Shown here: piece by piece, positions 9,218 to 61,770 of the stretch | Layout of the letters: each line of letters opens with the position of its first letter | Position numbering within the stretch: the stretch's first letter is position 1 | Origin: Eledone cirrhosa | Lineage: Eukaryota | Direction: 5' to 3' | DNA length: 64,000 nt | Assembly (NCBI GenBank): GCA_964016885.1 | Contig: OZ024741.1 | Span: forward strand, 351,602,001-351,666,000 | Notes under the pieces: generated by a model | What the model was told of the DNA's origin: nothing | The model's database searches: none | What the model saw: the letters and a program-made list of their open reading frames with translations, nothing else | Program-made: the position numbers and the translations under genes

Positions 9218-9449
9218 TTCTTTATTTGCCACAAGGGCGCACAAGAAAAGGGGACAATACAAAGACATGTCGGGGATTTTACATACAGTCGTGTAAAAAA
9301 TATAGAACAAACAATTACAACAATCGAAATCCCCAATAGGGGGGAAGCGCCACAAATGGGTTGTTTAATACCCCATCGATAGAACAACCCTCAACTCCAG
9401 GAGCGTGTTGTGCAAGTGCTCCTTTCTTCCTTTTGCTCTCTTTTTCAAC

Positions 9450-12872: not shown

Positions 12873-12949
12873 GTTGGTGAAGAAGAGTTGGAGAAAAAGG
12901 AAGAAAAGGTACACTTACCTTTTCGTTTCCTGGAGATCGGGTTGTTCAA

Positions 12950-14489: not shown

Positions 14490-14534
<45 letters not shown>

Positions 14535-14856: not shown

Positions 14857-15027
14857 GTTTTATAGTTGGCAAAATTTGATTTTTTAAAACAATTTTTAAA
14901 TTAAATTTTCGCTGACAATTCAGCTTGGGGTTAATCTACAAAATGATATGTTTTTTCAAACAATTTGTTCAGTTTTTTGTATAGAGATTTACAAAAAAGC
15001 TTACCGGCGATGTTCCACGCGTCAGGC

Positions 15028-15111
<84 letters not shown>
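15028..15111. repeat. (GATA)n microsatellite between LINE copies
   Basis: Directly visible. Confidence 0.97.

Positions 15112-15947: not shown

Positions 15948-15948
<1 letters not shown>
15112..15948 (-). mobile_element. More diverged 5'-truncated copy of the same Tx1-type LINE family
   Basis: LGETLGVEEDELASLFGRTFRPGPMDN..CPRCVHDEETVAHAFVHC and the same 3' end (cttgtggctaataaagaaat). It has an internal deletion of about 10 codons. Confidence 0.9.

Positions 15949-16022
<74 letters not shown>
15949..16022. repeat. (GATA)n microsatellite at the 5' junction of the third LINE copy
   Basis: Directly visible. Confidence 0.97.
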
Positions 16023-19823: not shown

Positions 19824-20028
19824 AAATTAGAAATAGAAGCTTTCGCCGTATTTTTTACTAAAGAAATTTTAGCCTGATAGTGGGGTTTAGAACCCTTTAA
19901 GAAATGGAAAACGATGAGTCTTGTATGTCAATACTCATCTTTTTCTATTTTTTAGAGGGTTCTAAACCCCACTATCAGGCTAAAATTTCTTTAGTAAAAA
20001 ATACGGCGAAAGCTTCTATTTCTAATTT
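19824..20028. repeat. ~205-bp fold-back palindrome
   Basis: 19824-19896 is the exact reverse complement of 19956-20028. Imperfect pairing continues inward to a loop of a few bases. Confidence 0.93.
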
Positions 20029-20597
20029 GTGTTTTCATTTTTAGGATATAGTGTTGCCATAAAATATGTATGTAGAATAGAAGCATATTCCTCATGTATC
20101 CAATTGTAACTTTTTGATTTTATTAGTGGCACACATGACTGGAAAGCTCCATCACTTAGAATGTTATCATTTTTGTGCTTCTAAATTTGTACGGTTTTGT
20201 TCGCAAAGTCCTTACGATTATTTTTTTTTTAAGTTCAAAGAACGAACGACTATACATCTATGTGATTCTTATATCTTACATCTTTCGCTATTTCTATAAT
20301 ATAAGCCCATGTAATACAATCGATAACTTTTATGTTACTAACATGCACACGAACCCCTTTTTTATTTGTTTGTCTGTTCTCCGTTTCTTGTTTTTTTTGT
20401 TTTTTTTTCTTTTTTCTTGTTATTTTGTAACTATTAACATTTTGTAATATTTCTTTCTTTAAGGCGACACATTTCCGAGGTAACTGGTCGTTTTCACTTT
20501 ATCTTTGGCCCCTAAAGCTGTATTTCTTTTGTGGCTTCGCCACACAATGAATCTATTGTCGTGTGCCTCGATTTCTTCTTCTAGGAAGAACTTCAAC

Positions 20598-23500
20598 ATG
20601 CAGGAGAAAAACGAGAGGGGCGACGTCCCCACCAACGTTACGATTGTCAGCACCAAAACTACAGACATCAACAAGGCCACTGTCACCACCACAACTACAG
20701 ACATCAACAAGGCCACTTTCACCACCACAACTACAGACATCACCAAGGCCAATGTCACCACCACAACTCCAGACATCAACAAGGCCATTGTCACCACCAC
20801 AACAACAGACATCAACAAGGCCACTTTCACCACCACAACTACAGACATCACCAAGGCCAATGTCACCACCACAACTGCAGACATCACCAAGGCCAATGTC
20901 ACCACCACAACTACAGACATCACCAACAAGGCCACTGTCACCACCACAGCTACAGACATCAACAAGGCCATTGTCACCACCACAACTACAGACATCAACA
21001 AGGCCACTGTCACCATCACAACTACAGACATCACCAACAAGGCCACTGTCACCACCACAACTACAGACATTAACAAGGCCATTGTCACCACCACAACTAC
21101 AGACATCAACAAGGCCACTTTCACCACCACAACTACAGACATCACCAAGGCCAATGTCACCACCACAACTACAGACATCAACAAGGCCACTGTCACCACC
21201 ACAACAACAGACATCAACAAGGCCATTGTCACCACCACAACTACAGACATCAACAAGGCCACTGTCACCACCACAACTACAGACATCAACAAGGCCACTG
21301 TCACCATCACAATTACAGACATCAACAAGGCCACTGTCACCACCACAACTACAGACATCAACAAGGCCATTCTCACCACCACAACTACAGACATCAACAA
21401 GGCCACTGTCATCACCACAACTACAGACATCAACAAGGCCACTGTCACCATCACAATTACAGACATCAACAAGGCCACTGTCACCACCACACCTACAGAC
21501 ATCAACAAGGCCACTGTCACCATCACAACTACAGACATCAACAAGACCACTGTCACCACCACAACTACATACATCAACAAGGCCACTGTCACCACCACAA
21601 CTACAGATATCACCAAGGCCACTGTCACCACCACAACTACAAACATCACCAACAAGGCCACTGTCACCACCACAACTACAGACATCAACAAGGCCACTGT
21701 CACCGTCACAACTACAGACATCACCAAGGCCACTGTCACCACCACAACTACAAACATCACCAACAAGGCCACTGTCACCACCACAACTACAGACATCAAC
21801 AAGGCCACTGTCACCATCACAACTACAGACATCAACAAGGCCACTGTCACCATCACAACTTCAGACATCAACAAGGCCACTGTCACCAACACAACTACAG
21901 ATATCAACAACGCCACTGTCACCACTAAAACTACAGACATCAACAAGGCCACTGTCACCACCACAACTACAGACATCAACAAGGCCACTGTCACCACCGC
22001 AACTACAGACGTCAACAAGGCCACTGTCACCACCACAACTACATACATCAACAAGGCCACTGTCACCACCACAACTACAGACATCACCAAGGCCACTGTC
22101 ACCACCACAACTACAGACATCACCAAGGCCACTGTCACCACCACAACTACAGACATCACCAAGGCCACTGTCACCACCACAACTACAGACATCAACAAGG
22201 CCTCTGTCACCATCACAACTACAGACATCACCAACAAGGCCACTGTCACCACCACAACTACAGACATCAACAAGGCCACTGTCACCACCACAACTACAGA
22301 CATCAACAAGGCCACTGTCACCACCACAACTACAGACATCAACAAGCCCACTGTCACCACCACAACTACAGACATCAACAAGGCCACTGTCACCACCACA
22401 ACTACAGACATCACCAAGGCCACTGTTACCAGCACAACTACAGACATCAACAAGGCCACTGTCACCACCACAACTACAGACATCAACAAGGCCACTGTCA
22501 CCACCACAACTACAGACATCAACAAGGCCACTGTCACCACCACAACTACAGACATCAACAAGGCCACTGTCACCACCACAACTACAGACATCAACAAGAC
22601 CACTGTCACCACCACAATTACAGACACCAACAAGGGCACTGTCACCACCACAACTACAGACATCACCAAGGCCACTGTCACCACCACAACTCCAGACATC
22701 ACCAAGGCCACTGTCACCACCACAATTACAGACATCAACAAGGGCACTGTCACCACCACAACTACAGACATCAACAAGGCCACTGTCACCACCACAACTA
22801 CAGACATCAACAAGGCCACTGTCACCACCACAACTACAGACATCAACACGGCCACTGTCACCAGCACAACAACAGACATCAACAAGGCCACTGTCACCAC
22901 CACAACTACAGACATCAACAAGGCCACTGTCACCAGCACAACTACAGACATCAACAAGGCCACTGTCACCACCACACCTACAGACATCAACAAGGCCATT
23001 GTCACCACCACAACTACAGACATCACCAACAAGGCCACTGTCACCACCACAACTACACATATCAACAAGGCCACTGTCACCACCACAACTACAGACATCA
23101 ACAAGGCCACTTTCACCACCACAACTCCAGACATCACCAAGGCCACTGTCACCACCACAACTACAGACATCAACAAGGCCACTGTCACCAGCACAACTAC
23201 AGACATCAACAAGGCCACTGTCACCACCACACCTACAGACATCAACAAGGCCATTGTCACCACCACAACTACAGACATCACCAACAAGGCCACTGTCACC
23301 ACCACAACTACACATATCAACAAGGCCACTGTCACCACCACAACTACAGACATCAACAAGGCCACTGTCACCACCACAACTACAGACATCAACAAGGCCA
23401 CTGTCACCACCACAACTACACATATCAACAACGCCACTGTCACCACCACAACTACAGACATCAACAAGGCCACTGTCACCACCACAACTACAGACATCAA

Positions 23501-24899
23501 CAAGACAACTGTCACCACCACAACTACAGACATCACCAAGGCCACTGTCACCACCACAACTACAGACATCAACAAGGCCACTGTCACCACCACAGCTACA
23601 GACATCAACAAGGCCACTGTCACCACCACAACTACAGACATCAACAAGGCCACTGTCACCATCGCAACTACAGACATCAACAAGGCCACTGACACCACCA
23701 CAACTACAGACATCAACAAGGCCACTGACACCACCACAACTACAGACATCAACAAGGCCACTGTCACCACCACAACTACAGACATCAACAAGGCCACTGT
23801 CACCACCACAACTACAGACATCAACAAGGCCACTGTCACCACCACAACTACAGACATCAACAAGGCCACTGACACCACCACAACTACAGACGTCAACAAG
23901 GCCATTGTCACCACCACAACTACAGACATCAACAAGGCCACTGTCACCACCACAACTACAGAAATCAACAAGGCCACTGTCACCACCACAACTACAGACA
24001 TCAACAAGGCCATTGTCACCAACACCACTACAGACATCAACAAGGCCACTGTCACCACCACAACTACAGACATCAACAAGGCCACTGTCACCACCACAAC
24101 TACAGACATCAACAAGGCCACTGTCACCACCACACCTACAGACATCAACAAGGCCACTGTCACCACCACAACTACATACATCAACAAGAACACTGTCACC
24201 ACCACAACTACAGACATCAACAAGGCCACTGTCACCACCACAACTACAGACATCACCAAGGCCACTGTCACCACCACAACTACAGACATCAACAAGGCCA
24301 CTGTCACCACCACAACTACAGACATCAACAAGGCCACTGTCACCACCGCAACTACAGACATCAACAAGGCCACTGTCACCACCACAACTACATACATCAA
24401 CAAGGCCACTGTCACCGCCACAACTACAGACATCACCAAGGCCACTGTCACCACCACAACTACAGACATCACCAACGAGGCCACTGTCACCACCACAACT
24501 ACAGACATCAACAAGGCCACTGTCACCATCACAACTACAGACATCAACAAGGCCACTGTCACCATCACAACTTCAGACATCAACAAGGCCACTGTCACCA
24601 ACACAACTACAGATATCAACAACGCCACTGTCACCACTAAAAACTACAGACATCAACAAGGCCACTGTCACCACCACAACTACAGACATCAACAAGGCCA
24701 CTGTCACCACCACAACAACAGACATCAACAAGGCCACTGTCACCACCACAACTACAGACATCAACAAGGCCACTGTCACCACCACAACTACAGACATCAA
24801 CAAGACCATTGTCACCACCACAACTACAGACATCAACAAGGCCACTGTCACCACCACAACAACAGACATCAACAAGGCCACTGTCACCACCACAACTAG
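20598..24899 (+). CDS. Possible Thr-rich repeat ORF (MQEKNERGDVPTNVTIVST + [TTTTTDINKATV]n); coding status unproven, probably the N-terminus of a decayed LINE ORF1
   Basis: caacATG at 20598 is in frame with the Thr-rich frame. A +1 frameshift occurs at ~24640. Open frames are expected here from the unit's composition alone. Confidence 0.25.
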   Translation: MQEKNERGDVPTNVTIVSTKTTDINKATVTTTTTDINKATFTTTTTDITKANVTTTTPDINKAIVTTTTTDINKATFTTTTTDITKANVTTTTADITKANVTTTTTDITNKATVTTTATDINKAIVTTTTTDINKATVTITTTDITNKATVTTTTTDINKAIVTTTTTDINKATFTTTTTDITKANVTTTTTDINKATVTTTTTDINKAIVTTTTTDINKATVTTTTTDINKATVTITITDINKATVTTTTTDINKAILTTTTTDINKATVITTTTDINKATVTITITDINKATVTTTPTDINKATVTITTTDINKTTVTTTTTYINKATVTTTTTDITKATVTTTTTNITNKATVTTTTTDINKATVTVTTTDITKATVTTTTTNITNKATVTTTTTDINKATVTITTTDINKATVTITTSDINKATVTNTTTDINNATVTTKTTDINKATVTTTTTDINKATVTTATTDVNKATVTTTTTYINKATVTTTTTDITKATVTTTTTDITKATVTTTTTDITKATVTTTTTDINKASVTITTTDITNKATVTTTTTDINKATVTTTTTDINKATVTTTTTDINKPTVTTTTTDINKATVTTTTTDITKATVTSTTTDINKATVTTTTTDINKATVTTTTTDINKATVTTTTTDINKATVTTTTTDINKTTVTTTITDTNKGTVTTTTTDITKATVTTTTPDITKATVTTTITDINKGTVTTTTTDINKATVTTTTTDINKATVTTTTTDINTATVTSTTTDINKATVTTTTTDINKATVTSTTTDINKATVTTTPTDINKAIVTTTTTDITNKATVTTTTTHINKATVTTTTTDINKATFTTTTPDITKATVTTTTTDINKATVTSTTTDINKATVTTTPTDINKAIVTTTTTDITNKATVTTTTTHINKATVTTTTTDINKATVTTTTTDINKATVTTTTTHINNATVTTTTTDINKATVTTTTTDINKTTVTTTTTDITKATVTTTTTDINKATVTTTATDINKATVTTTTTDINKATVTIATTDINKATDTTTTTDINKATDTTTTTDINKATVTTTTTDINKATVTTTTTDINKATVTTTTTDINKATDTTTTTDVNKAIVTTTTTDINKATVTTTTTEINKATVTTTTTDINKAIVTNTTTDINKATVTTTTTDINKATVTTTTTDINKATVTTTPTDINKATVTTTTTYINKNTVTTTTTDINKATVTTTTTDITKATVTTTTTDINKATVTTTTTDINKATVTTATTDINKATVTTTTTYINKATVTATTTDITKATVTTTTTDITNEATVTTTTTDINKATVTITTTDINKATVTITTSDINKATVTNTTTDINNATVTTKNYRHQQGHCHHHNYRHQQGHCHHHNNRHQQGHCHHHNYRHQQGHCHHHNYRHQQDHCHHHNYRHQQGHCHHHNNRHQQGHCHHHN

Positions 24900-27800
24900 A
24901 GACATCAACAAGACCATTGTCACCACCACAACTACAGACATCAACAAGGCCACTGTCACCACCACAACAACAGACATCAACAAGGCCACTGTCACCACCA
25001 CAACTACAGACATCAACAAGGCCACTGTCACCACCACAACTACAGACATCACCAAGGCCACTGTCACCACCACAACTAGAGACATCAACAAGGCCTCTGT
25101 CACCATCACAACTACAGACATCACCAACAAGGCCACTGTCACCACCACAACTACAGACATCAACAAGGCCACTGTCACCACCACAACTACAGACATCAAC
25201 AAGGCCACTGTCACCACCGCAACTACAGACATCAACAAGGCCACTGTCACCACCACAACTACAGACATCACCAAGGCCACTGTCACCACCACAACTACAC
25301 ATATCAACAAGGCCACTGTCACCACCACAACTACAGACATCAACAAGGCCACTGTCACGACCACAACTACAGACATCAACAAGGCCACTGTCACCATCAC
25401 AACTACTGACATCAACAAGGCCACTGTCACCACCACAACTACAGACATCAACAAAGCCACTGTCACCACCACAACTACAGACATCAACAAGGCCACTGTC
25501 ACCACCTCAACTACAGACATCATCAACAAGGCCACTGTCACCACCACAACTACAGACATCAACAAGGCCACTGTCACCACCACAACTACAGACATCAACA
25601 AGGCCACTGTCACCATCACAACTACTGACATCAACAAGGCCACTGTCACCACCACAACTACAGACATCAACAAGGCCACTGTCACCACCACAACTACAGA
25701 CATCAACAAGGCCACTGTCACCACCACAACTACAGACATCATCAACAAGGCCACTGTCACCACCACAACTACAGACATCAACAAGACCATTGTCACCACC
25801 ACAACTACAGACATCAACAAGGGCACTGTCACCACCACAACTACAGACATCACCAAGGCCACTGTCACCACCACAGCTCCAGACATCACCAAGGCCACTG
25901 TCACCACCACAACTACAGATATCAACAAGGCCACTGTCACCACCACAACTACAGACATCACCAAGGCTACTGTCACCATCACAACTACAGACATCAACAA
26001 GGCCACCGTCACCACCACAACTACAGACATCACCAAGGCCACTGTCGCCACCACAACTACAGACATCACCAACAAGGCCACTGTCACCACCACAACTACA
26101 CATATCAACAAGGCCACTGTCACCACTACAACTACAGACATCAACAAGGCCACTGTCACCACCACAACTACATATATCAACAAGGCCACTGTCACCACCA
26201 CAACTACAGACATCAACAAGGCCACTGTCACCACCACAACAACAGACATCAACAAGGCCACTGTCACCACCACAACTACAGACATCAACAAGGCCACTGT
26301 CACCACCACAACTACAGACATCACCAAGGCCACTGTCACCACCACAACTAGAGACATCAACAAGGCCTCTGTCACCATCACAACTACAGACATCACCAAC
26401 AAGGCCACTGTCACCACCACAACTACAGACATCAACAAGGCCACTGTCACCACCACAACTACAGACATCAACAAGGCCACTGTCACCACCGCAACTACAG
26501 ACATCAACAAGGCCACTGTCACCACCACAACTACAGACATCACCAAGGCCACTGTCACCACCACAACTACACATATCAACAAGGCCACTGTCACCACCAC
26601 AACTACAGACATCAACAAGGCCACTGTCACGACCACAACTACAGACATCAACAAGGCCACTGTCACCATCACAACTACTGACATCAACAAGGCCACTGTC
26701 ACCACCACAACTACAGACATCAACAAGGCCACTGTCACCACCACAACTACAGACATCAACAAGGCCACTGTCACCACCTCAACTACAGACATCATCAACA
26801 AGGCCACTGTCACCACCACAACTACAGACATCAACAAGGCCACTGTCACCACCACAACTACAGACATCAACAAGGCCACTGTCACCATCACAACTACTGA
26901 CATCAACAAGGCCACTGTCACCACCACAACTACAGACATCAACAAGGCCACTGTCACCACCACAACTACAGACATCAACAAGGCCACTGTCACCACCACA
27001 ACTACAGACATCATCAACAAGGCCACTGTCACCACCACAACTACAGACATCAACAAGACCATTGTCACCACCACAACTACAGACATCAACAAGGGCACTG
27101 TCACCACCACAACTACAGACATCACCAAGGCCACTGTCACCACCACAGCTCCAGACATCACCAAGGCCACTGTCACCACCACAACTACAGATATCAACAA
27201 GGCCACTGTCACCACCACAACTACAGACATCACCAAGGCTACTGTCACCATCACAACTACAGACATCAACAAGGCCACCGTCACCACCACAACTACAGAC
27301 ATCACCAAGGCCACTGTCGCCACCACAACTACAGACATCACCAACAAGGCCACTGTCACCACCACAACTACACATATCAACAAGGCCACTGTCACCACTA
27401 CAACTACAGACATCAACAAGGCCACTGTCACCACCACAACTACATATATCAACAAGGCCACTGTCACCACCACAACTACAGACATCAACAAGGCCACTGT
27501 CACCACTACAACTACAGACATCAACAAGGCCACTGTCACCACCACAACTACAGACATCAACAAGGCCACTGTCACCACCACAACTACAGACATCAACAAG
27601 GCCACTGTCACCACCACAACTACAGACATCAACAAGGCCACTGTCACCATCACAACTACAGATATCAACAAGGCCATTGTCACCACCACAACTACAGACA
27701 TCAACAAGGCCACTGTCACCACCACAACTACAGACATCACGAAGGCCACTGTCACCACCACAACTACATACACCAACAAGGCCACTGTCACCACCACAAC

Positions 27801-30800: not shown

Positions 30801-33800
30801 TACAGACATCATCAACAAGGCCACTGTCACCACCACAACTACAGACATCAACAAGACCATTGTCACCACCACAACTACAGACATCAACAAGGGCACTGTC
30901 ACCACCACAACTACAGACATCACCAAGGCCACTGTCACCACCACAACTCCAGACATCACCAAGGCCACTGTCACCACCACAACTACAGATATCAACAAGG
31001 CCACTGTCACCACCACAACTACAGACATCACCAAGGCTACTGTCACCATCACAACTACAGACATCAACAAGGCCACCGTCACCACCACAACTACAGACAT
31101 CACCAAGGCCACTGTCGCCACCACAACTACAGACATCACCAACAAGGCCACTGTCACCACCACAACTACACATATCAACAAGGCCACTGTCACCACTACA
31201 ACTACAGACATCAACAAGGCCACTGTCACCACCAAAACTACATATATCAACAAGGCCACTGTCACCACCACAACTAGAGACATCAACAAGGCCACTGTCA
31301 CCACTACAACTACAGACATCAACAAGGCCACTGTCACCACCACAACTACAGACATCAACAAGGCCACTGTCACCACCACAACTACAGACATCAACAAGGC
31401 CACTGTCACCACCACAACTACAGACATCAACAAGGCCACTGTCACCATCACAACTACAGATATCAACAAGGCCATTGTCACCACCACAACTACAGACATC
31501 AACAAGGCCACTGTCACCACCACAACTACAGACATCAACAAGGCCACTGTCACCACTACAACTACAGACATCAACAAGGCCACTGTCACCACCACAACTA
31601 CAGACATCACCAAGGCCACTGTCACCACCACAACGACAGACATCAACAAGGCCACTGTCACCACCACAACTACAGACATCAACAAGGCCACTGTCACCAT
31701 CACAACTACAGATATCAACAAGGCCATTGTCACCACCACAACTACAGACATCAACAAGGCCACTGTCACCACCACAACTACAGACATCAACAAGGCCACT
31801 GTCACCACCACAATTACAGACATCACGAAGGCCACTTTCACCACCACAACTACATACACCAACAAGGCCACTGTCACCACCACAACTACAGATATCAACA
31901 AGGCCACTGTCACCACCACAACTACAGACATCACCAAGGCCACTGTCACCACCACAACGACAGACATCAACAAGGGCACTGTCACCACCACAACTACAGA
32001 CATCACCAAGGCCACTGTCACCACCACAACTACAGACATCACCAAGGCCACTGTCACCACCACAACTACAGACATCACCAAGGCCACTGTCACCACCACA
32101 ACTACAGACATCACCAAGGCCACTGTCACCACCACAACTACAGACATCACCAAGGCCACTGTCACCACCACAACTACAGACATCAACAAGGCCACGTCAC
32201 CATCACAACTACAGACATCAACAAGGCCACTGTCACCACCACAACTGCAGACATCAACAAGGCCACTGTCACCACCACAACTACAGACATCACCAAGGCC
32301 ACGTCACCATCACAACTACAGACATCAACAAGGCCACTGTCACCAACACAACTACAGATATCAACAACGCCACTGTCACCACTAAAAACTACAGACATCA
32401 ACAAGGCCACTGTCACCACCACAACTACAGACATCAACAAGGCCACTGTCACCACCACAACAACAGACATCAACAAGGCCACTGTCACCACCACAACTAC
32501 AGACATCAACAAGGCCACTGTCACCACCACAACTACAGACATCAACAAGACCATTGTCACCACCACAACTACAGACATCAACAAGGCCACTGTCACCACC
32601 ACAACAACAGACATCAACAAGGCCACTGTCACCACCACAACTAGAGACATCAACAAGACCATTGTCACCACCACAACTACAGACATCAACAAGGCCACTG
32701 TCACCACCACAACAACAGACATCAACAAGGCCACTGTCACCACCACAACTACAGACATCACCAAGGCCACTATCACCACCACAACTACAGACATCACCAA
32801 GGCCACTGTCACCACCACAACTAGAGACATCAACAAGGCCTCTGTCACCATCACAACTACAGACATCACCAACAAGGCCACTGTCACCACCACAACTACA
32901 GACATCAACAAGGCCACTGTCACCACCACAACTACAGACATCAACAAGGCCACTGTCACCACCGCAACTACAGACATCAACAAGGCCACTGTCACCACCA
33001 CAACTACAGACATCACCAAGGCCACTGTCACCACCACAACTACACATATCAACAAGGCCACTGTCACCACCACAACTACAGACATCAACAAGGCCACTGT
33101 CACCACCACAACTACAGAAATCAACAAGGCCACTGTCACCATCACAACTACTGACATCAACAAGGCCACTGTCACCACCACAACTACAGACATCAACAAG
33201 GCCACTGTCACCACCACAACTACAGACATCAACAAGGCCACTGTCACCACCTCAACTACAGACATCATCAACAAGGCCACTGTCACCACCACAACTACAG
33301 ACATCAACAAGGCCACTGTCACCACCACAACTACAGACATCAACAAGGCCACTGTCACCATCACAACTACTGACATCAACAAGGCCACTGTCACCACCAC
33401 AACTACAGACATCAACAAGGCCACTGTCACCACCACAACTACAGACATCAACAAGGCCACTGTCACCACCACAACTACAGACATCATCAACAAGGCCACT
33501 GTCACCACCACAACTACAGACATCAACAAGACCACTGTCACCACCACAACTACAGACATCAACAAGGGCACTGTCACCACCACAACTACAGACATCACCA
33601 AGGCCACTGTCACCACCACAACTCCAGACATCACCAAGGCCACTGTCACCGCCACAACTACAGATATCAACAAGGCCACTGTCACCACCACAACTACAGA
33701 CATCACCAAGGCTACTGTCACCATCACAACTACAGACATCAACAAGGCCACCGTCACCACCACAACTACAGACATCACCAAGGCCACTGTCGCCACCACA

Positions 33801-36800
33801 ACTACAGACTTCACCAACAAGGCCACTGTCACCACCACAACTACACATATCAACAAGGCCACTGTCACCACTACAACTACAGACATCAACAAGGCCACTG
33901 TCACCACCACAACTACATATATCAACAAGGCCACTGTCACCACCACAACTACAGACATCAACAAGGCCACTGTCACCACTACAACTACAGACATCAACAA
34001 GGCCACTGTCACCACCACAACTACAGACATCAACAAGGCCACTGTCACCACCACAACTACAGACATCAACAAGGCCACTGTCACCACCACAACTACAGAC
34101 ATCAACAAGGCCACTGTCACCATCACAACTACAGATATCAACAAGGCCATTGTCACCACCACAACTACAGACATCAACAAGGCCACTGTCACCACCACAA
34201 CTACATACACCAACAAGGCCACTGTCACCACCACAACTACAGACATCAACAAGGCCACTGTCACCACCACAACTACAGACATCACCAAGGCCACTGTCAC
34301 CACCACAACGACAGACATCAACAAGGGCACTGTCACCACCACAACTACAGACATCACCAAGGCCAATGTCACCACCACAACTACAGACATCACCAAGGCC
34401 ACTGTCACCACCACAACTACAGACATCACCAAGGCCACTGTCACCACCACAACTACAGACATCACCAAGGCCACTGTCACCACCACAACTACAGACATCA
34501 CCAAGGCCACTGTCACCACCACAACTACAGACATCAACAAGGCCACGTCACCATCACAACTACAGACATCAACAAGGCCACTGTCACCACCACAACTGCA
34601 GACATCAACAAGGCCACTGTCACCACCACAACTACAGACATCACCAAGGCCACGTCACCATCACAACTACAGACATCAACAAGGCCACTGTCACCACCAC
34701 AACTACAGACATCACCAACAAGGCCACTGTCACCACCATAACTACAGACATCCACAAGGCCACTGTCACCACCCCAACTACAGACATCCACAAGGCCACT
34801 GTCACCACCACAACTACAGACATCAACAAGGCCACTGTCACCACCACAACTACAGACATCAACAAGGCCACTGTCACCACCACAACTACAGACATCACCA
34901 ACAAGGCTACTGTCACCACCACAACTACAGACATCAACAAGGCCACTGTCACCACCACAACTACAGACATCAACAAGGCCACTGTCACCACCACAACTAC
35001 AGACATCACCAACAAGGCTACAGTCACCACCACAACTACAGACATCAACAAGGCCATTGTCACCATCACAACTACAGACATCAACAAAGCCATTGTCACC
35101 ACCACAACTACAGACATCAACAAGGCCACTGTCACCACCACAACTACAGACAACAACAAGGCCACTGTCACCACCACAACTACAGACATCAACAAGGCCA
35201 CTGTCACCATCACAACTACAGACATCAACAAGGCCACTGTCACCATCACAACTACAGACATCAACAAGGCAATTGTCACCACCACAACTACAGACATCAA
35301 CAAGGCTACTGTCACCACAACAACTACAGACATCAACAAGGCCATTGTCACCACCACAACTACAGACATCAACAAGGCCACTGTCACCATCACAACTACA
35401 GACATCAACAAGGCCACTGTCACCATCACAACTACTGACATCAACAAGGCCACTGTCACCACCCCAACTACAGACATCAACAAGGCCACTGTCACCACCA
35501 CAACTACAGACATCACCAAGGCCACTGTCACCACCACAACTACAGACATCAACAAGGCCACTGTCACCACCACAACTACAGACATCAACAAGGCCACTGT
35601 CACCACCACAACTACAGACATCACCAAGGCCACTGTCACCACCACAACTACAGATATCAACAAGGCCACTGTCACCACCACAACTACAGACATCACCAAC
35701 AAGGCCACAGTCACCACCACAACTACAGACATCACCAACAAGGCCATTGTCACCACCACAACTACAGACATCAACAAGGCCACTGTCACCACCACAACTA
35801 CAGACATCAACAAGGCCACTGTCACCACCACAGCTACAGACATCACCAAGGTCACTGTCACGACCACAACTACAGACATCAACAGGGCCACTGTCACCAT
35901 CACAACTACAGACATCACCAAGGCCACTGTCACCACCACAACTACAGACATCAACAAGGCCACTGTCACCACCACACCTACAGACATCACCAACACGACC
36001 ACTGTCACCACCACAACTACAGACATCAACAAGGCCACTGTCACCACCACAACTACAGACATCAACAAGGCCACTGTCACCACCACAACTACAGACATCA
36101 ACAAGGCCACTGTCACCACCACAACTACAGACATCATCAACAAGGCCACTGTCACCACCACAACTACAGACATCAACAAGACCATTGTCACCACCACAAC
36201 TACAGACATCAACAAGGGCACTGTCACCACCACAACTACAGACATCACCAAGGCCACTGTCACCACCACAACTCCAGACATCACCAAGGCCACTGTCACC
36301 ACCACAACTACAGATATCAACAAGGCCACTGTCACCACCACAACTACAGACATCACCAAGGCTACTGTCACCATCACAACTACAGACATCAACAAGGCCA
36401 CCGTCACCACCACAACTACAGACATCACCAAGGCCACTGTCGCCACCACAACTACAGACATCACCAACAAGGCCACTGTCACCACCACAACTACACATAT
36501 CAACAAGGCCACTGTCACCACTACAACTACAGACATCAACAAGGCCACTGTCACCACCACAACTACATATATCAACAAGGCCACTGTCACCACCACAACT
36601 AGAGACATCAACAAGGCCACTGTCACCACTACAACTACAGACATCAACAAGGCCACTGTCACCACCACAACTACAGACATCAACAAGGCCACTGTCACCA
36701 CCACAACTACAGACATCAACAAGGCCACTGTCACCACCACAACTACAGACATCAACAAGGCCACTGTCACCATCACAACTACAGATATCAACAAGGCCAT

Positions 36801-39800
36801 TGTCACCACCACAACTACAGACATCAACAAGGCCACTGTCACCACCACAACTACAGACATCACGAAGGCCACTTTCACCACCACAACTACATACACCAAC
36901 AAGGCCACTGTCACCACCACAACTACAGATATCAACAAGGCCACTGTCACCACCACAACTACAGACATCACCAAGGCCACTGTCACCACCACAACGACAG
37001 ACATCAACAAGGGCACTGTCACCACCACAACTACAGACATCACCAAGGCCACTGTCACCACCACAACTACAGACATCACCAAGGCCACTGTCACCACCAC
37101 AACTACAGACATCACCAAGGCCACTGTCACCACCACAACTACAGACATCACCAAGGCCACTGTCACCACCACAACTACAGACATCACCAAGGCCACTGTC
37201 ACCACCACAACTACAGACATCAACAAGGCCACGTCACCATCACAACTACAGACATCAACAAGGCCACTGTCACCACCACAACTGCAGACATCAACAAGGC
37301 CACTGTCACCACCACAACTACAGACATCACCAAGGCCACGTCACCATCACAACTACAGACATCAACAAGGCCACTGTCACCAACACAACTACAGATATCA
37401 ACAACGCCACTGTCACCACTAAAAACTACAGACATCAACAAGGCCACTGTCACCACCACAACTACAGACATCAACAAGGCCACTGTCACCACCACAACAA
37501 CAGACATCAACAAGGCCACTGTCACCACCACAACTACAGACATCAACAAGGCCACTGTCACCACCACAACTACAGACATCAACAAGACCATTGTCACCAC
37601 CACAACTACAGACATCAACAAGGCCACTGTCACCACCACAACAACAGACATCAACAAGGCCACTGTCACCACCACAACTAGAGACATCAACAAGACCATT
37701 GTCACCACCACAACTACAGACATCAACAAGGCCACTGTCACCACCACAACAACAGACATTAACAAGGCCACTGTCACCACCACAACTACAGACATCACCA
37801 AGGCCACTATCACCACCACAACTACAGACATCACCAAGGCCACTGTCACCACCACAACTAGAGACATCAACAAGGCCTCTGTCACCATCACAACTACAGA
37901 CATCACCAACAAGGCCACTGTCACCACCACAACTACAGACATCAACAAGGCCACTGTCACCACCACAACTACAGACATCAACAAGGCCACTGTCACCACC
38001 GCAACTACAGACATCAACAAGGCCACTGTCACCACCACAACTACAGACATCACCAAGGCCACTGTCACCACCACAACTACACATATCAACAAGGCCACTG
38101 TCACCACCACAACTACAGACATCAACAAGGCCACTGTCACCACCACAACTACAGACATCAACAAGGCCACTGTCACCATCACAACTACTGACATCAACAA
38201 GGCCACTGTTACCACCACAACTACAGACATCAACAAGGCCACTGTCACCAACACAACTACAGACATCAACAAGGCCACTGTCACCACCTCAACTACAGAC
38301 ATCATCAACAAGGCCACTGTCACCACCACAACTACAGACATCAACAAGGCCACTGTCACCACCACAACTACAGACATCAACAAGGCCACTGTCACCATCA
38401 CAACTACTGACATCAACAAGGCCACTGTCACCACCACAACTACAGACATCAACAAGGCCACTGTCACCACCACAACTACAGACATCAACAAGGCCACTGT
38501 CACCACCACAACTACAGACATCATCAACAAGGCCACTGTCACCACCACAACTACAGACATCAACAAGACCACTGTCACCACCACAACTACAGACATCAAC
38601 AAGGGCACTGTCACCAGCACAACTACAGACATCACCAAGGCCACTGTCACCACCACAACTCCAGACATCACCAAGGCCACTGTCACCACCACAACTACAG
38701 ATATCAACAAGGCCACTGTCACCACCACAACTACAGACATCACCAAGGCTACTGTCACCATCACAACTACAGACATCAACAAGGCCACCGTCACCACCAC
38801 AACTACAGACATCACCAAGGCCACTGTCGCCACCACAACTACAGACTTCACCAACAAGGCCACTGTCACCACCACAACTACACATATCAACAAGGCCACT
38901 GTCACCACTACAACTACAGACATCAACAAGGCCACTGTCACCACCACAACTACATATATCAACAAGGCCACTGTCACCACCACAACTACAGACATCAACA
39001 AGGCCACTGTCACCACTACAACTACAGACATCAACAAGGCCACTGTCACCACCACAACTACAGACATCAACAAGGCCACTGTCACCACCACAACTACAGA
39101 CATCAACAAGGCCACTGTCACCACCACAACTACAGACATCAACAAGGCCACTGTCACCATCACAACTACAGATATCAACAAGGCCATTGTCACCACCACA
39201 ACTACAGACATCAACAAGGCCACTGTCACCACCACAACTACATACACCAACAAGGCCACTGTCACCACCACAACTACAGACATCAACAAGGCCACTGTCA
39301 CCACCACAACTACAGACATCACCAAGGCCACTGTCACCACCACAACGACAGACATCAACAAGGGCACTGTCACCACCACAACTACAGACATCACCAAGGC
39401 CAATGTCACCACCACAACTACAGACATCACCAAGGCCACTGTCACCACCACAACTACAGACATCACCAAGGCCACTGTCACCAGCACAACTACAGACATC
39501 ACCAAGGCCACTGTCACCACCACAACTACAGACATCACCAAGGCCACTGTCACCACCACAACTACAGACATCAACAAGGCCACGTCACCATCACAACTAC
39601 AGACATCAACAAGGCCACTGTCACCACCACAACTGCAGACATCAACAAGGCCACTGTCACCACCACAACTACAGACATCACCAAGGCCACGTCACCATCA
39701 CAACTACAGACATCAACAAGGCCACTGTCACCACCACAACTACAGACATCACCAACAAGGCCACTGTCACCACCATAACTACAGACATCCACAAGGCCAC

Positions 39801-42800
39801 TGTCACCACCCCAACTACAGACATCCACAAGGCCACTGTCACCACCACAACTACAGACATCAACAAGGCCACTGTCACCACCACAACTACAGACATCAAC
39901 AAGGCCACTGTCACCACCACAACTACAGACATCACCAACAAGGCTACTGTCACCACCACAACTACAGACATCAACAAGGCCACTGTCACTACCACAACTA
40001 CAGACATCAACAAGGCCACTGTCACCACCACAACTACAGACATCACCAACAAGGCTACAGTCACCACCACAACTACAGACATCAACAAGGCCATTGTCAC
40101 CATCACAACTACAGACATCAACAAGGCCATTGTCACCACCACAACTACAGACATCAACAAGGCCACTGTCACCACCACAACTACAGACATCAACAAGGCC
40201 ACTGTCACCACCACAACTACAGACATCAACAAGGCCACTGTCACCATCACAACTACAGACATCAACAAGGCCACTGTCACCATCACAACTACAGACATCA
40301 ACAAGGCAATTGTCACCACCACAACTACAGACATCAACAAGGCTACTGTCACCACAACAACTACAGACATCAACAAGGCCATTGTCACCACCACAACTAC
40401 AGACATCAACAAGGCCACTGTCACCATCACAACTACAGACATCAACAAGGCCACTGTCACCATCACAACTACTGACATCAACAAGGCCACTGTCACCACC
40501 CCAACTACAGACATCAACAAGGCCACTGTCACCACCACAACTACAGACATCACCAAGGCCATTGTCACCACCACAACTACAGACATCAACAAGGCCACTG
40601 TCACCACCACAACTACAGACATCAACAAGGCCACTGTCACCACCACAACTACAGACATCACCAAGGCCACTGTCACCACCACAACTACAGATATCAACAA
40701 GGCCACTGTCACCACCACAACTACAGACATCACCAACAAGGCCACTGTCACCACCACAACTACAGACATCACCAACAAGGCCATTGTCACCACCACAACT
40801 ACAGACATCAACAAGGCCACTGTCACCACCACAACTACAGACATCAACAAGGCCACTGTCACCACCACAACTACAGACATCACCAAGGTCACTGTCACGA
40901 CCACAACTACAGACATCAACAGGGCCACTGTCACCATCACAACTACAGACATCACCAAGGCCACTGTCACCACCACAACTACAGACATCAACAAGGCCAC
41001 TGTCACCACCACACCTACAGACATCACCAACACGACCACTGTCACCACCACAACTACAGACATCAACAAGGCCACTGTCACCACCACAACTACAGACATC
41101 AACAAGGCCACTGTCACCACCACAACTACAGACATCAACAAGGCCACTGTCACCACCACAACTACAGATATCAACAAGGCCACTGTCACCACCGCAACTA
41201 CAAACATCACCAAGGCCACTGTCACCACCACAACTACAGACATCAACAAGGCCACTGTCACCACCACAACTACAGACATCAACAAGGCCACTGTCACCAC
41301 CACAACTACAGACATCAACAAGGCCACTGTCAACACCACAACTACAGACATCAACAAGGCCACTGTCACCACCTCAACTACAGACATCAACAAGGCCACT
41401 GTCACCACCACAACTACAGACATGAACAAGGCCACTGTCACCACCACAACCACATACATCAACAAGGCCACTGTCACCACCACAACTACAGACATCAACA
41501 AGGCCACTGTCACCACCTCAACTACAGACATCAACAAGGCCACTGTCACCACCACAACTACAGACATCAACAAGGCCACTGTCACCACCACAACTACAGA
41601 CATCAACAATGCCACTGTCACCACCACAACTACAGACATCAACAAGGCCACTGTCACCATCACAACTACAGACATCAACAAGGCCACTGTCACCACCACA
41701 ACTACAGACATCAACAAGGCCACTGTCACCACCACAACTACAGACATCAACAAGGCCACTGTCACCACCTCAACTACAGACATCAACAAGGCCACTGTCA
41801 CCACCACAACTACAGACATCAACAAGGCCACTGTCACCACCACAACTACAGACATCAACAATGCCACTGTCACCACCACAACTACAGACATAAACAAGGC
41901 CACTGTCACCATCACAACTACAGACATCAACAAGGCCACTGTCACCACCACAACTACAGACATCAACAAGGCCACTGTCACCACCACAACTACAGACATC
42001 AACAAGGCCACTGTCACCACCACAACTACACATATCAACAAGGCCACTGTCACCACCACAACTACAGACATCAACAAGGCCACTGTCACCACCTCAACTA
42101 CAGACATCAACAAGGCCACTGTCACCACCACAACTACAGACATCAACAAGGCCACTGTCACCACCACAACTACAGACATCAACAATGCCACTGTCACCAC
42201 CACAACTACAGACATCAACAAGGCCACTGTCACCATCACAACTACAGACATCAACAAGGCCACTGTCACCACCACAACTACAGACATCAACAAGGCCACT
42301 GTCACCACCACAACTACAGACATCAACAAGGCCACTGTCACCACCACAACTACACATATCAACAAGGCCACTGTCACCACCACAACTACAGACATCAACA
42401 AGGCCACTTTCACCACCACAACTACAGACATCACCAAGGCCACTGTCACCACCACAACTACAGACATCAACAAGGCCACTGTCACCATCACAACTACAGA
42501 CATCAACAAGGCCACTGTCACCACCACAACTACAGACATCGACAAGGCCACTGTCACCACCACAACTACAGACATCAACAAGGCCACGTCACCATCACAA
42601 CTACAGACATCAACAAGGCCACTGTCACCACCACAACTACAGACATCACCAACAAGGCCACTGTCACCACCATAACTACAGACATCCACAAGGCCACTGT
42701 CACCACCCCAACTACAGACATCCACAAGGCCACTGTCACCACCACAACTACAGACATCAACAAGGCCACTGTCACCACCACAACTACAGACATCAACAAG

Positions 42801-54800: not shown

Positions 54801-57800
54801 ACCACCACAACTACAGACATCAACAAGGCCACTGTCACCACCACAACTACAGATATCACCAACAAGGCCACTGTCACCACCACAACTACAGACATCAACA
54901 AGGCCACTGTCACTATCACAACTACAGACATCCACAAGGCCACTGTCACCACCACAACTACAGACATTACCAAGGCCACTGTCACCACCACAACTACAGA
55001 CATCACCAAGGCCACTGTCACCATCACAACTACAGACGTCAACAAGGCCACTGTCACGACCACAACTACAGACATCAACAAGGCCACTGTCACCACCACA
55101 ACTACAGACTTCACCAACAAGGCCACTGTCACCACCACAACTACAGACATCAACAAGGCCACTGTCACTATCACAACTACAGACATCAACAATGCCACTG
55201 TCACCACCACAACTACAGACATCAACAAGGCCACTGTCACCACCACAACTACAGACATCAACAAGGCCACTGTAACCACCACATCTACAGACATCAACAA
55301 GGCCACTGTCACCACCACAACTACAGACATCAACAAGGCCACTGTCACCACCACAACTACAGACATCAACAAGGCCACTGTCACCACCACAACTACAGAC
55401 ATCAACAATGCCACTGTCACCACCTCAACTACAGACATCAACAAGGCCACTGTCACCACCACAACTACAGACATTACCAAGGCCACTGTCACCACCACAA
55501 CTACAGACATCACCAAGGCCACTGTCACCATCACAACTACAGACGTCATCAAGGCCACTGTCACCACCACAACTACAGATATCAACAAGGCCACTGTCAC
55601 CACCACAACTACAGACATCAACAACGCCACTGTCACCACCACAACTACAGACATCACCAACAAGGCCACTGTCACCACCACAACTACAGACATCAACAAG
55701 GCCACTGTCACCACCACAACTACAGATATCAACAAGGCCACTGTCACCACCACAACTACAGACATCAACAAGGCCACTGTCACCACCACAACTACAGATA
55801 TCACCAACAAGGCCACTGTCACCACCACAACTACAGACATCAACAAGGCCACTGTCACTATCACAACTACAGACATCCACAAGGCCACTGTCACCACCAC
55901 AACTACAGACATTACCAAGGCCACTGTCACCACCACAACTACAGACATCACCAAGGCCACTGTCACCATCACAACTACAGACGTCAACAAGGCCACTGTC
56001 ACGACCACAACTACAGACATCAACAAGGCCACTGTCACCACCACAACTACAGACTTCACCAACAAGGCCACTGTCACCACCACAACTACAGACATCAACA
56101 AGGCCACTGTCACTATCACAACTACAGACATCAACAAGGCCACTGTCACCACCACAACTACAGACATCAACAAGGCCACTGTCACCAGCACAACTACAGA
56201 CATCACCAAGGCCACTGTCACCACCACAACTACAGCCATCAACAAGGCCAATGTCACCACCACAACTACAGACATCACCAACAAGGCCACTGTCACCAAC
56301 ACAACTACAGACATCAACAAGGCCACTGTCACCACCACAACTACAGCCATCAACAAGGCCACTGTCACGACCACAACTACAGACATCAACAAGGCCACTG
56401 TCACCACCACAACTACAGACATCACCAAGGCCACTGTCACCAACACAACTACAGACATCAACAAGGCCACTGTCACCACCACAACTACAGACATCAACAA
56501 GGCCACTGTCACCACCACAACTACAGACATCATCAACAAGGCCACTGTCACCACCACAACTACAGACATCAACAAGGCCACTGTCACCATCACAACTACA
56601 GACGTCAACAAGGCCACTGTCACCACCACAACTACAGACATCAACAAGGCCACTGTCACCACCACAACTACAGACATCACCAACAAGGCCACTGTCACCA
56701 CCACAACTACAGACATCAACAAGGCCACTGTCACTATCACAACTACAGACATCAACAAGGCCACTGTCACCACCACAACTACAGACATCAACAAGGCCAC
56801 TGTCACCACCACAACTACAGACATCACCAAGGCCACTGTCACCACCACAACTACAGCCATCAACAATGCCACTGTCACCATCACAACTACAGACATCAAC
56901 AAGGCCACTGTCACCACCACAACTACAGACATTAACAAGGCCACTGTCACTATCACAACTACAGACATCAACAAGGCCACTGTCACCACCACAACTACAG
57001 ACATCAACAAGACCACTGTCACCATCACAACTACAGACATCAACAAGGCCACTGTCACCACCACAACTACAGACATCAACAAGGCCACTGTCACCACCAC
57101 AACTACAGACATCAACAAGGCCACTGTCACCACCACAACTACAGACATCAACAAGACCACTGTCACCACCACAACTACAGACATCAACAAGGCCACTGTC
57201 ACCACCACAACTACAGACATCAACAAGACCACTGTCTCCACCACAACTACAGACATCAACAAGGCCACTGTCACCACCACAACTACAGACATCAACAAGG
57301 CCACTGTCACCACCACAACTATAGACATCACCAAGGCCACTGTCACCATCACAACTACAGACATCAACAAGGCCACTGTCACCACCCCAACTATAGACAT
57401 CACCAAGGCCACTGTCACCAGCACAACTACAGACATCACCAAGGCCACTGTCACTACCACAACTACAGACATCAACAAGGCCACTGTCACCACCACAACT
57501 ACAGACATCAACAAGGCCACTGTCACCAGCACAACTACAGACATCAACAAGGCCACTGTCACCACCACAACTACAGACATCAACAAGGCCACTGTCCCCA
57601 CCACAACTACAGACATCACCAACAAGGCCACTGTCACCACCACAACTACAGCCATCAACAATGCCACTGTCACCACCACAACTACAGACATCAACAAGGC
57701 CACTGTCACCACCACAACTATAGACATCACCAAGGCCACTGTCACCACCACAACTACAGACATCAACAAGGCCACTGTCACCACCACAACTACAGACATC

Positions 57801-59450
57801 AACAAGGCCACTGTCACCACCACAACTACAGACATCAACAAGGCCACTGTCACCACCACAACTATAGACATCACCAAGGCCACTGTCACCATCACAACTA
57901 CAGACATCAACAAGGCCATTGTCACCACCACAACTATAGACATCAACAAGGCCACGTCACCATCACAACTACAGACATCAACAAGGCCACTGTCACCTCC
58001 ACAACTACAGACATCAACAAGGCCACTGTCACCACCACAACTACAGACATCAACAAGGCCACTGTCACCACCACAACTACAGACATCAACAAGGCCACTT
58101 TCACCACCACAACTACAGACATCACCAAGGCCACTGTCACCACCACAACTACAGACATCAACAAGGCCACTGTCACCACCACAACTACAGACATCAACAA
58201 GGCCACTGTCACCACCACAACTACAGACATCACCAACAAGGCGACTGTCACCACCACAACTATAGACATTACCAAGGCCACTGTCACCACCACAACTACA
58301 GACATCACCAAGGCCACTGTCACCACCACAACTACAGACATCAACAAGGCCACTGTCACCATCACAACTACAGACATTAACAAGGCCACTGTGACCACCA
58401 CAACTACAGACATCAACAAGGCCACTATCACCACCACAGCTACAGACATCAACAAGACCACTGTCACCACCACAACTACAGACATCACCAAGACCACTGT
58501 CACCACCACAACTACAGACATCAACAAGGCCACTGTCACCACCACAACTACAGACATCAACAAGGCCACTGTCACCACCACAACTACAGACATCAACAAG
58601 GCCACTGTCACCACCACAACTACAGACATCAACAAGGCCACTATCACCACCACAGCTACAGACATCAACAAGACCACTGTCACCACCACAACTACAGACA
58701 TCACCAAGACCACTATCACCACCACAGCTACAGACATCAACAAGGCCACTATCACCACCACAGCTACAGACATCAACAAGACCACTGTCACCACCACAAC
58801 TACAGACATCACCAAGACCACTGTCACCACCACAACTACAGACATCAACAAGGCCACTGTCACCACCACAACTACAGACATCAACAAGGCCACTGTCACC
58901 ACCACAACTACAGACATCACCAACAAGGCGACTGTCACCACCACGACTATAGACATTACCAAGGCCACTGTCACCACCACGACTATAGACATTACCAAGG
59001 CCACTGTCACCACCACAACTATAGACATCACGAAGGCCACTGTCCCCACCACAACTACAGACATCAACAAGGCCACTGTCACCATCACAACTACAGACAT
59101 CAACAAGGCCACTGTCACCACCACAACTACAGACATCAACAAGGCCACTATCACCACCACAGCTACAGACATCAACAAGACCACTGTCACCATCACAACT
59201 ACAGACATCAACAAGGCCACTGTCACCATCACAACTACAGACATCAACAAGGCCACTGTCACCACCACAACTACAGACATCAACAAGGCCACTATCACCA
59301 CCACAGCTACAGACATCAACAAGGCCACTGTCACCACCACAACTACAGACATCAACAAGGCCACTATCACCACCACAGCTACAGACATCAACAAGACCAC
59401 TGTCACCACCACAACTACAGACATCACCAACAAGCCCACTGTCACCAACA
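20646..59450 (+). repeat. ~38.8-kb tandem array of a 36-bp unit (GCCACTGTCACCACCACAACTACAGACATCAACAAG), about 1,070 copies, with 39-bp variants and higher-order duplications
   Basis: Directly visible. The unit is 14 A, 14 C, 4 G, 4 T, has one GGCC and no CpG. Copy number is estimated as length divided by unit size. Confidence 0.99.
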
Positions 59451-59789
59451 ACAACTGTAGCAGCAGCAACAACAACAGCAACGACAATGACATCAACAGC
59501 AATAACAACAACACCAGGGTTGGCAATAATAGTGGCACCAACAACCAAAACCAAAGGTGTCGTGAGACAGGTGACGATATTAATTTTCTACCACTATGAA
59601 CGCCACCTTCTCCACCGCCACCACAGTGACCACTACTACCACCATTACCTCCATCACCACGTCAACAACAAAAATACAACACAACAAACAATGACAACAA
59701 CAATAATAGTAACAACAACAACAGTAACAAAAGCCAAAGAAACAACAACAAAAACAATGAAAAATTAATAGCACCAACAACACAACAGC

Positions 59790-61030
59790 AAAATCTTTTA
59801 TCAGACATTGTCACTAAAAAAGAAATGCATGAATTAACATTACAAACAAAGGACTTGGATTGGCTCAAACCAAAAAATTAATAAAAGTTGAAGGTGGGAA
59901 GGAGTGGTTATGAAGCCACCTGAAATAGTGGAAGAAAGTGCAAAAAAAAAAAAAATTTACAGAACTGTGTCGCTGCGGGGCTGGTGTGCCGAACATTCCA
60001 CAGTTGTTCATGTGGAGAAAGCTATAAAAGAGGAAATGCCAGATGTGGCACATATACAACGAAGAAGACAGCTTACCAGTGTCGAAGTCTTCTTCAAAAG
60101 TGAGGACATCGTACGAAAATATTCGGTAGTCCCCCTTCCCGATGGAGTGAGAAGTTTGTGTCCTCTATCCAACGTATAATTCTGTCAAGAACTGTCAAGC
60201 TGAGAATACTGGGTGTTCCGCCGGGCCTAAACATTTGGTGGATCTTAGCCTGCGTTGTCCTTAGAAACCCGAATACACTCTTCGTAGTCAAAAGGAGTGA
60301 AGGACAAAATTGGTCCGGGATAGACCTGGAGATTCTGCTCCAGGTAAAGCCAGACGAAACAGACAAAATCCTGAATCATATACAGCTGCCCTCCAGATAC
60401 TTACTGAAGGAAAAAAGTCTTAAATCTGTGTGGGTCCAGCGGCCACCTAAGAGCTTGCTGCACACAGAAAATAGGAGAAAGAGGCCACTGCTGCTGCCAA
60501 TACTGAAGCAACAACAACGACAGTTTGCCACACTTGTAGCAGCAGCATCAACAACTGTTACACTAGCCAACAAAACCGGTAGCTGTAACAACAACAGTAC
60601 CAACAGAATTATCTCCAACAGAACCAACACCCATGGAAAACATGCCCCTCCCCGACGGCACACAGTTTGGCATGGATTGTGATGAAAGAAAAGAGTAGCA
60701 TGCTGTCATCCAAAAGAAAAAAAAGGGTGAAACAGAAGGAAATAAAAAAGTTAAAGCGATGAGCTAAATAATGCCAACACACACACACACACACCATCAA
60801 CAGCACAGCACCGATCCCACCTTCACAGCTAGCATCAACACCACAACAGACACCATCAACAACATTCCAAGCAACAAAGGCAACCGCAACAAAATAACAC
60901 AAACTCCACTCGTTACAAACAACCAGATACTGATGCACCACTTAAAACACAATCCTACAATTGCAGAGACTGATTATATTATCATCCACCCCAACAAAAA
61001 GATTTTAGTATGTTCCTTACTCTCCTTATA
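59790..61030 (+). pseudogene. Degenerate Tx1-type LINE ORF1 homolog (paralog of 12950-14856), no ORF2 visible
   Basis: KPPEIVEE..YRTVS..HIQRRRQLTSVEVFFKSED..KYSVVP aligns with SPLEIKEE..FRTVS..FLQRGKQYGGVSVLFKSEA..KHSVAP. PPGLNIWWILA..WSGIDLEILLQVKP aligns with PPNINI*WILA..WVSADLEILMQMKP. CGSSGHLRAC (60429-60458) aligns with CGSTTHLKVSC. Confidence 0.82.
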
Positions 61031-61074
61031 TATTCAGATCTTATCATCTTTTTCATTTTATTGCTTTTAATGTT

Positions 61075-61400
61075 ATCTACTTCCAGTGTCACTCTCCTTT
61101 ATCACCTCTCCTCTTGGTGCCTCGATTCCTTTGCTTCTCTTCAATTTACCCCCTCCTCATCACTAGGACTCCACACTTATTAACACTAAATTCTATACAT
61201 ATATCATTGCTGTAAATACGAACAGTGTTAAAAGTACATCCAACTCTTCGTTCTTCCCAAGGAGTTTTAGGTCGTCCACGAAGAGGGGGTAGTTGATGGT
61301 AAGCTCTCCTCTTCCCAGTTCGTATCCTGTCTTCACTCTTCGTAATATGGGGGACAAGAGTTTGAGGATAAGAAAAACAATAAAGGAGACAAACTATCTC
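61075..61400 (-). mobile_element. R4/Dong-like reverse transcriptase fragment
   Basis: My minus-strand translation gives LSPILRRVKTGYELG..INYPLFVDDLKLLGKNE..TVRIYSNDICIEFSVNKCGVLVMRRG, matching the (HLLFMDDLKLY..SxDIGMEFG..KC) pattern. Confidence 0.78.
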
Positions 61401-61412
61401 ATTTGAAGATAC

Positions 61413-61490
61413 CTGGTGGTGGTGGTGGTAGTGGTAGTGATGGAGTTTGTGATGGTGGTTGTGGTGGTGGTGGTAGTGTTGGTTGTGCTA
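61413..61490. repeat. Degenerate (GGT)n trinucleotide repeat
   Basis: Directly visible. Confidence 0.85.
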
Positions 61491-61770
61491 CTGTCTATCA
61501 CACACCACACGCATGTTTTGTTGCGTTCTCCAGCTAAATTGATGAAAATGTGTATTGTTGTGAAACCCATGCTGACAATATGTCTTACAAGCGATAAGAC
61601 CTGAAACTAAGACATCTCCGTTAGAATTTCCGAACGAAAGAAAAGGTTTTAAAAATAGACTTCTAAGGGAGATAATAATTAAAATCTACTGACAGGATTG
61701 TGGGTTATCCTTCTTGATTTGCTATGAATAACATCAAAAATAACTACCGAGCAATAACCGTTTAATTTAA

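Follow-up and report, generated by a model that had tools for sequence, protein, structure and literature searches.

The Locus and Its Host LINE Copy

The stretch of DNA analyzed here (the window) comprises 64,000 nucleotides of contig OZ024741.1 of the Eledone cirrhosa assembly. A tandem array occupies positions 20645-59456 of its forward strand, and Tandem Repeats Finder describes it as 1072.4 copies of a 36-bp period with 93% matches. Parts of the ORF1 of a LINE copy lie on both sides of the array. To the left are a remnant of the 5′ untranslated leader (20440-20555, +), recognized by local alignment above the shuffle control in 14 of 29 related loci, and the start of ORF1 in the register of the family (20556-20644, +), placed by eye against sister copies. 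The first ~90 bp of the host family are unrecognizable at the 5′ end of the window copy. To the right are the rest of the low-complexity, AAC/ACC-rich ORF1 N-terminus (59457-59760, +), which is collinear with sister copies, and the core and C-terminal part of ORF1 (59760-61010, +), with 54 non-self matches at 63-82% identity. Positions 1-401 of the right flank are 74-76% identical to two sister copies (L093 and L094). A long inverted repeat seen by eye at ~19826-20028, 400 bp before the host LINE, has very high read depth over the part examined and is likely MITE-like.

An earlier note on this DNA, made from the sequence alone, took the ATG at 20598, with 16 codons before the array, as the start of ORF1. 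This ATG and the 16 codons are present, and a further in-frame ATG lies at 20547, but the family start lies 14 codons before 20598, at 20556, where the window copy reads TTG. Eight sister copies (L010, L012, L022, L023, L024, L097, L108, and L109) begin with an M-x-D/N/V-T-E/K-V-S-like sequence ~14 codons before the equivalent of 20598 (by eye). The ORF1 core of the window copy contains stops, frameshifts, and a degenerate zinc knuckle. The motifs that the same note listed after ~59790 are found there in changing frames, but the CCHC knuckle among them lacks the first Cys and reads LNLCGSSGHLRACC. The knuckle motif was found in three family copies; it is complete in L074 and L128, and the first Cys is lost in L067.

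Homology to the host family stops at ~61010, about 330 bp short of the family ORF2 start. The place expected for ORF2 is occupied by an unrelated high-copy repeat with a reverse-transcriptase-like fragment (61030-61500, −), and read depth jumps at 60993-61051. The translation of this fragment contains an FVDDLKL motif, and it may be R4/Dong- or RTE-like; a Pfam search of 61149-61487 returned no match. No ORF2 adjoins the window copy in the next 30 kb, and the sole ORF2 found there is part of another LINE, which is complete. With a broken ORF1, a TTG at the start position, and no ORF2, the host copy is dead. Its ORF1 core has a mean identity of 78.6% to 10 sister copies, and the sisters are 75.7% identical among themselves, so the window copy is an ordinary old member of its family.

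The Host Family and the Other LINE in the Window

Of 21 family loci retrieved as 10-kb stretches, 7 have an endonuclease downstream of ORF1 and in the same orientation, and 11 contain at least a piece of ORF2. Because an APE endonuclease follows ORF1 in these seven loci, the host is identified as the ORF1 of an L1-group LINE. The family has the L1-group arrangement of ORF1 followed by an ORF2 with APE and reverse transcriptase (RT), although the window copy itself has no ORF2; one sister copy (L128) combines both window flanks with endonuclease and RT. Within the L1 group the family probably belongs to the Tx1 clade, for which RT phylogeny is the defining criterion (PMC4494074; PMC5203782). 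Tx1 elements are described as having an ORF2 with APE and RT, an ORF1 with an RNA-binding-like region and a CCHC knuckle, and insertion at microsatellites (PMC4494074; PMC5203782). The host family and the LINEs related to it may fit this description; the host copy itself has no ORF2. Among 111 RT homologs there was no named Tx1 reference, and the best named homolog is from Argonauta hians (61%). In about 7 of 14 cases read by eye, the 5′ end of a host-family copy lies just after an (ATT)n run.

A separate LINE, full-length but broken, lies at 9220-15030 on the minus strand (Exo_endo_phos E 1.1e-9, RVT_1 E 1.7e-10; zf-RVT, E 0.0012, fell below the cut-off). Against solved structures its RT scores 57-59 bits with human L1 ORF2p and 19-23 bits with R2 proteins. 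The element sits between (ATCT)n runs and belongs to a distant, younger-looking family. Related LINE 3′ fragments lie on either side of it on the same strand (8607-9164 and 15346-15963) with (ATCT)n runs between, a case of serial LINE insertion into the same microsatellite. An intact ORF1 of this younger family (L077) has no Pfam match above the cut-off, and none of 283 candidates matched an intact ORF1 core at E 1e-5 in a protein search. The Atlas neighbors (0.90-0.92) of the L077 core (2807-3544) carry zf-CCHC and ZCCHC3 RNA-binding domains, which is a lead only; a literature search found no paper that combines ZCCHC3 and Tx1.

The earlier note presented the 9220-15030 LINE as an unexpanded relative of the host within the window. 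The right flank does match its ORF1 at the protein level (42% over 52 aa, E 5e-12), and RT pieces of the host family are 40-62% identical to its RT. At the DNA level the two do not align; the best match of the right flank is 32 bp long and the left flank has short low-complexity matches only. Since the likeness is confined to protein, this LINE is a poor comparison for the unit, and the true unexpanded relatives lie elsewhere in the genome.

Structure of the Array

A wrap-around parse divides the 38.8-kb array into 1,072 units, a terminal piece of 24 bp included. Most units are 36 bp long (982); the others are 39 bp (70), 35 bp (13), 37 bp (5), and 34 bp (1). There are 186 distinct units, of which 90 occur once and the commonest, TDINKATVTTTT, occurs 347 times. 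Two units differ on average by 5.1%, and divergence is slightly higher toward both array edges. The final unit is of the 39-bp form, and the two commonest 36-bp units can each be derived from it by the loss of one triplet; the 36-bp units may have arisen from the 39-bp form, in that order of events.

The higher-order structure consists of nested multi-kb block duplications within 20645-59456. Blocks of 22-119 units recur with 0-13 base differences in 0.8-4.3 kb (0-0.3%). The largest internal duplication (31816-41163, +) is a block of 4,311 bp at an offset of 5,037 bp with 13 differences, and the longest exact repeat measures 2,211 bp. Tandem blocks of 945 bp (exact) and 1,272 bp (one difference) are also present, and recurring exact 300-mers cover 64% of the array. 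Nineteen of the 1,072 units shift the reading frame, and frame-shifting units have been copied 13 and 5 times along with the blocks. The array has the long head-to-tail arrangement, homogenized monomers, and higher-order blocks of a satellite.

It lies at a single locus. All 347 matches of the exact 36-mer in the 3.0-Gb genome are within the window, as are all 965 forward matches of a 24-mer searched with up to two mismatches. The only reverse match of the 24-mer is on C2 at 122.6 Mb and is a single unit in a diverged family-like copy, and no 24-mer matches occur in five neighboring 10-kb stretches. The 36-mer is therefore not a dispersed satellite, the outcome that the earlier note had named as contrary to its proposal. 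The array is interstitial, 351.6 Mb along a 416-Mb contig, and makes up ~0.001% of the assembly. Satellites are expected to be abundant or present at several loci; with one locus and so small a share of the assembly, this array is better named a giant minisatellite or an incipient satellite.

Sister Copies Without Expansion

Besides the window copy, the genome contains 54 matches to the right flank and five to the left flank. The set of 29 related loci used for comparison excludes L026, which overlaps L007, and most loci of one further search were dropped as duplicates or as low-complexity matches. The earlier note predicted copies with the two flanks adjacent and few units between them, and this was borne out. 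Both flanks occur in order in 12 of the 29 loci, all of them among the 14 whose left-flank match exceeds the shuffle control, and in ten of these 12 they are 21-225 bp apart, as against 38,854 bp in the window copy. The other two are L003, which has a longer AAC/AGC tract between the flanks, and L007, which was found by BLAST.

Sister copies mostly carry one unit-like segment between the flanks. Of 16 such segments compared with codon shuffles, 14 match the unit at p<0.01, although the match of L109 sits in its AAC tract. By eye, the segment is a 39-bp form with an extra triplet in seven sisters, a 36-bp form in one, and unclear in the others. The amplified segment of 12 codons proposed in the earlier note is thus supported as a single source segment, with the correction that it mostly measures 13 codons in sisters. 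Both edges of the array pass into flanking sequence in sister-copy register. In 13 of 14 sister segments the junction contains the 10-base core of the unit, with 0-2 mismatches. A search of the 14 segments for a short direct repeat at the bounds of the unit gave a flat profile, with 5.5-6.7 matches out of 15 whatever the offset and no excess at 36 or 39 bp.

Immediately after the same ORF1 segment, L003:2271-2778 (C2 near 235.10 Mb) contains an independent AAC/AGC expansion (63 bp × 8.2). A family-wide expansion hotspot has little support, and Tandem Repeats Finder on 116 loci, some of them overlapping, showed only the L003 tract at this site. No second expanded copy of the host LINE is present in the assembly.

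Reading Frame and Coding Potential

The earlier note described ~1,070 units in frame. The count agrees with the parse, but the common frame does not hold. The first frame-shifting unit is at 24609 (unit 110), and the open frame that begins at the ATG at 20547 spans the first 109 units and ends after 1,450 codons at a stop at 24897. In total, 668 of the 1,072 units start in the phase of the ATG, and the three frames contain 22, 20, and 33 stops. Of the 108 possible single changes of the unit, only 1 creates a stop in the ATG frame, and chance alone should therefore produce long open frames. The minus strand of the array has a still longer open frame of 5,670 aa.

The array variants are without codon constraint. 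The units contain 60 of the 78 amino-acid-changing single changes and 22 of the 29 silent ones (Fisher p = 1.0). The continuous frame and codon constraint of a mucin-like coding repeat are thus both absent. A Pfam search of the array frame found no family, and the first 150 codons, used as a protein query, matched none of 7,999 scored candidates at E 1e-10, which is weak evidence given the low-complexity query. No RNA record is listed with the right flank, which has no bearing on expression. No protein function is predicted for the array, which behaves as a neutral tandem array that is still turning over. For annotators, arrays of this kind yield mucin-like frames of several thousand codons with no sign of coding constraint.

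Assembly and Read Support

Sequencing reads support the left junction. In two runs of one sample, which is probably the source of the assembly itself, one contig extends over 20001-20684 without a difference, at a depth of ~10. The first units have summed depths of 2,982 and 1,773 in the two runs, or ~170-310 times that of the flank, and a ratio of ~400 is expected from the copies of first-unit 31-mers in the assembly; summed depth does not itself give a copy number. Coverage of the right flank runs from 59448 to 61030, again with no differences. For the stretch from the last units to 59448, none of the listed contigs bridges with 31 letters on each side. Misassembled junctions would have counted against the proposal of the earlier note; on the left, assembled reads run from the flank into the first unit with no differences. 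The reads support hundreds of units, not an exact length. Neither junction was covered in RAD-seq runs of two other individuals or in a run of organism B. X4 and X5 contain a fragment of the right flank (60699-60962), which shows that the LINE remnant is shared and nothing more.

Origin and Growth of the Array

Very likely, the array is a single-locus 39-kb minisatellite that lies within the N-terminal part of ORF1 in a decayed LINE copy of the L1 group (probably Tx1). Its likely source, through growth in place, is one segment of 36-39 bp that is single in sister copies. Growth in place is likely because the array is confined to one locus and the sisters carry the segment once. An old LINE copy would have inserted carrying one segment, and slippage in its tract rich in A/C triplets may have produced the first tandem copies. 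A unit shorter by 3 bp would then have risen to dominance, and unequal exchange between misaligned copies would have added 26-139 units at a time, regardless of the reading frame. Block repeats, copied frame-shifting units, and neutral variants are the pattern expected from unequal exchange in non-coding DNA. The flanks have diverged from sister copies by ~21%, whereas the array blocks differ by 0-0.3%, which implies that the visible growth is recent and took place in a dead copy. An ORF1 of 39 kb would hardly retrotranspose and the expanded copy is the only one, so growth after insertion is the simplest reading. Homogenization resets divergence; the origin of the array is therefore not datable, and a start while the copy was intact is possible. 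No orthologous unexpanded allele was seen. The birth of a satellite in a LINE ORF1, as proposed in the earlier note, is supported; the most fitting view of the amplification is that a dead copy grew as non-coding DNA, and not that a working ORF1 expanded.

Three other readings bear on the origin or the size of the array. The most serious of them, which we still regard as unlikely, is that the array is real but was assembled at a wrong length, through over-expansion or collapse, so that the figure of 39 kb is an artifact. The extent of the recurring exact 300-mers fits such an error, the 945-bp and 1,272-bp tandem blocks could be assembly duplications, and the observed depth ratio is below that expected. 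Against this, the longest exact repeat can be spanned by long reads, the array retains its 186 distinct units, 90 of them seen once, and the depth still indicates hundreds of units. Another reading is that a satellite already present elsewhere moved into the LINE copy and resembles the LINE segment through convergent low complexity; it could draw on the A/C-rich composition of the segment and on the other long A/C-rich arrays of the genome. It is largely refuted and barely credible, as the assembly has no other array of the 36-bp unit, both edges meet the flanks in sister-copy register, and the 10-base core recurs at the junction in nearly all sister segments.

Co-option of the 5′ part as an exon for a Thr-rich, mucin-like protein, with selection driving the expansion, would explain the 1,450-codon frame at 20547-24897 and the fact that most length variants of the unit are multiples of three. 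We consider it highly improbable: the variant spectrum is neutral to frame, long frames are expected by chance and the minus strand has a longer one, 19 units shift the frame, and the Pfam and protein searches returned nothing, the latter with the weakness noted for its query. There is equally little reason to expect that the retained LINE leader drives transcription and that 20547-24897 encodes such a protein. If this were true, a new host gene would have been built from a satellite that had itself arisen within a LINE ORF1.

Relation to Known Transposon-Derived Repeats

Tandem arrays that arose from transposon sequence are known from other systems. In Lathyrus sativus, tandem repeats of Ogre retrotransposons have likewise expanded in a few copies and remained short in others (PMC7004042). 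Ogre is an LTR element that had short 3′ UTR arrays beforehand, and its long arrays gather at primary constrictions (PMC7004042), whereas here a single ORF1 segment of a non-LTR element expanded in one copy only. Among LINE-derived satellites, chicken HinfI comes from the 3′ UTR and part of ORF2 of CR1, Phodopus PROsat and seal Pvc20 come from L1 ORF2, and the cetacean common satellite comes from the 3′ end of L1 (PMC9659126). Satellites have also been derived from gag, and any part of an element can serve as a source (PMC9659126). These satellites resemble the window array in that their monomers come from LINE sequence, coding sequence included; they are recognized by the likeness of the monomer to ORF2 or the 3′ end (PMC9659126), whereas here both parent flanks are in place. 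The available text of PMC9659126 and PMC7004042 describes no satellite derived from a LINE ORF1. A literature search, largely of papers outside subscription, likewise found no report of such a satellite or of this array. About 7,276 human minisatellites are transposon-derived (PMC9659126), and in these too a short unit has multiplied in place within a single transposon copy. The window array differs from them in its 39 kb and its multi-kb higher-order blocks. As a rule, human minisatellites are much shorter.

Long A/C-rich arrays are not rare in this genome. One of them, at C4:105,073,000-105,090,491 (L137, L138), is an (AAC)nAGT array that measures at least 17.5 kb and has no LINE ORF1 match on the side seen. 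On C2, 140 kb from the window array, a 22-bp unit is repeated 433 times over 9.5 kb with 93% matches (351,802,126-351,811,671; L131, L074). This 22-bp array was considered as part of the host-family copy L074 and rejected, for it lies ~1 kb beyond the LINE homology. A 23-bp minisatellite of ~2.4 kb is found at C2:351,751,701-351,754,148 (L136), and three multi-kb arrays, with units of 22, 23, and 36 bp, thus occur within ~200 kb.

Transposon-born tandem repeats are already known, and the window array, whose birthplace is unusually legible, needs no new mechanism. Satellite arrays usually outgrow the place where they arose and leave it, so that their origin is seldom readable. In this case one assembly keeps the parent flanks, a dozen unexpanded sisters, and a ladder of internal duplications, and together these allow the route from a single unit to 1,070 to be tested in different individuals and in related species. 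The locus adds the low-complexity N-terminal tracts of LINE ORF1 to the known sources of satellites.
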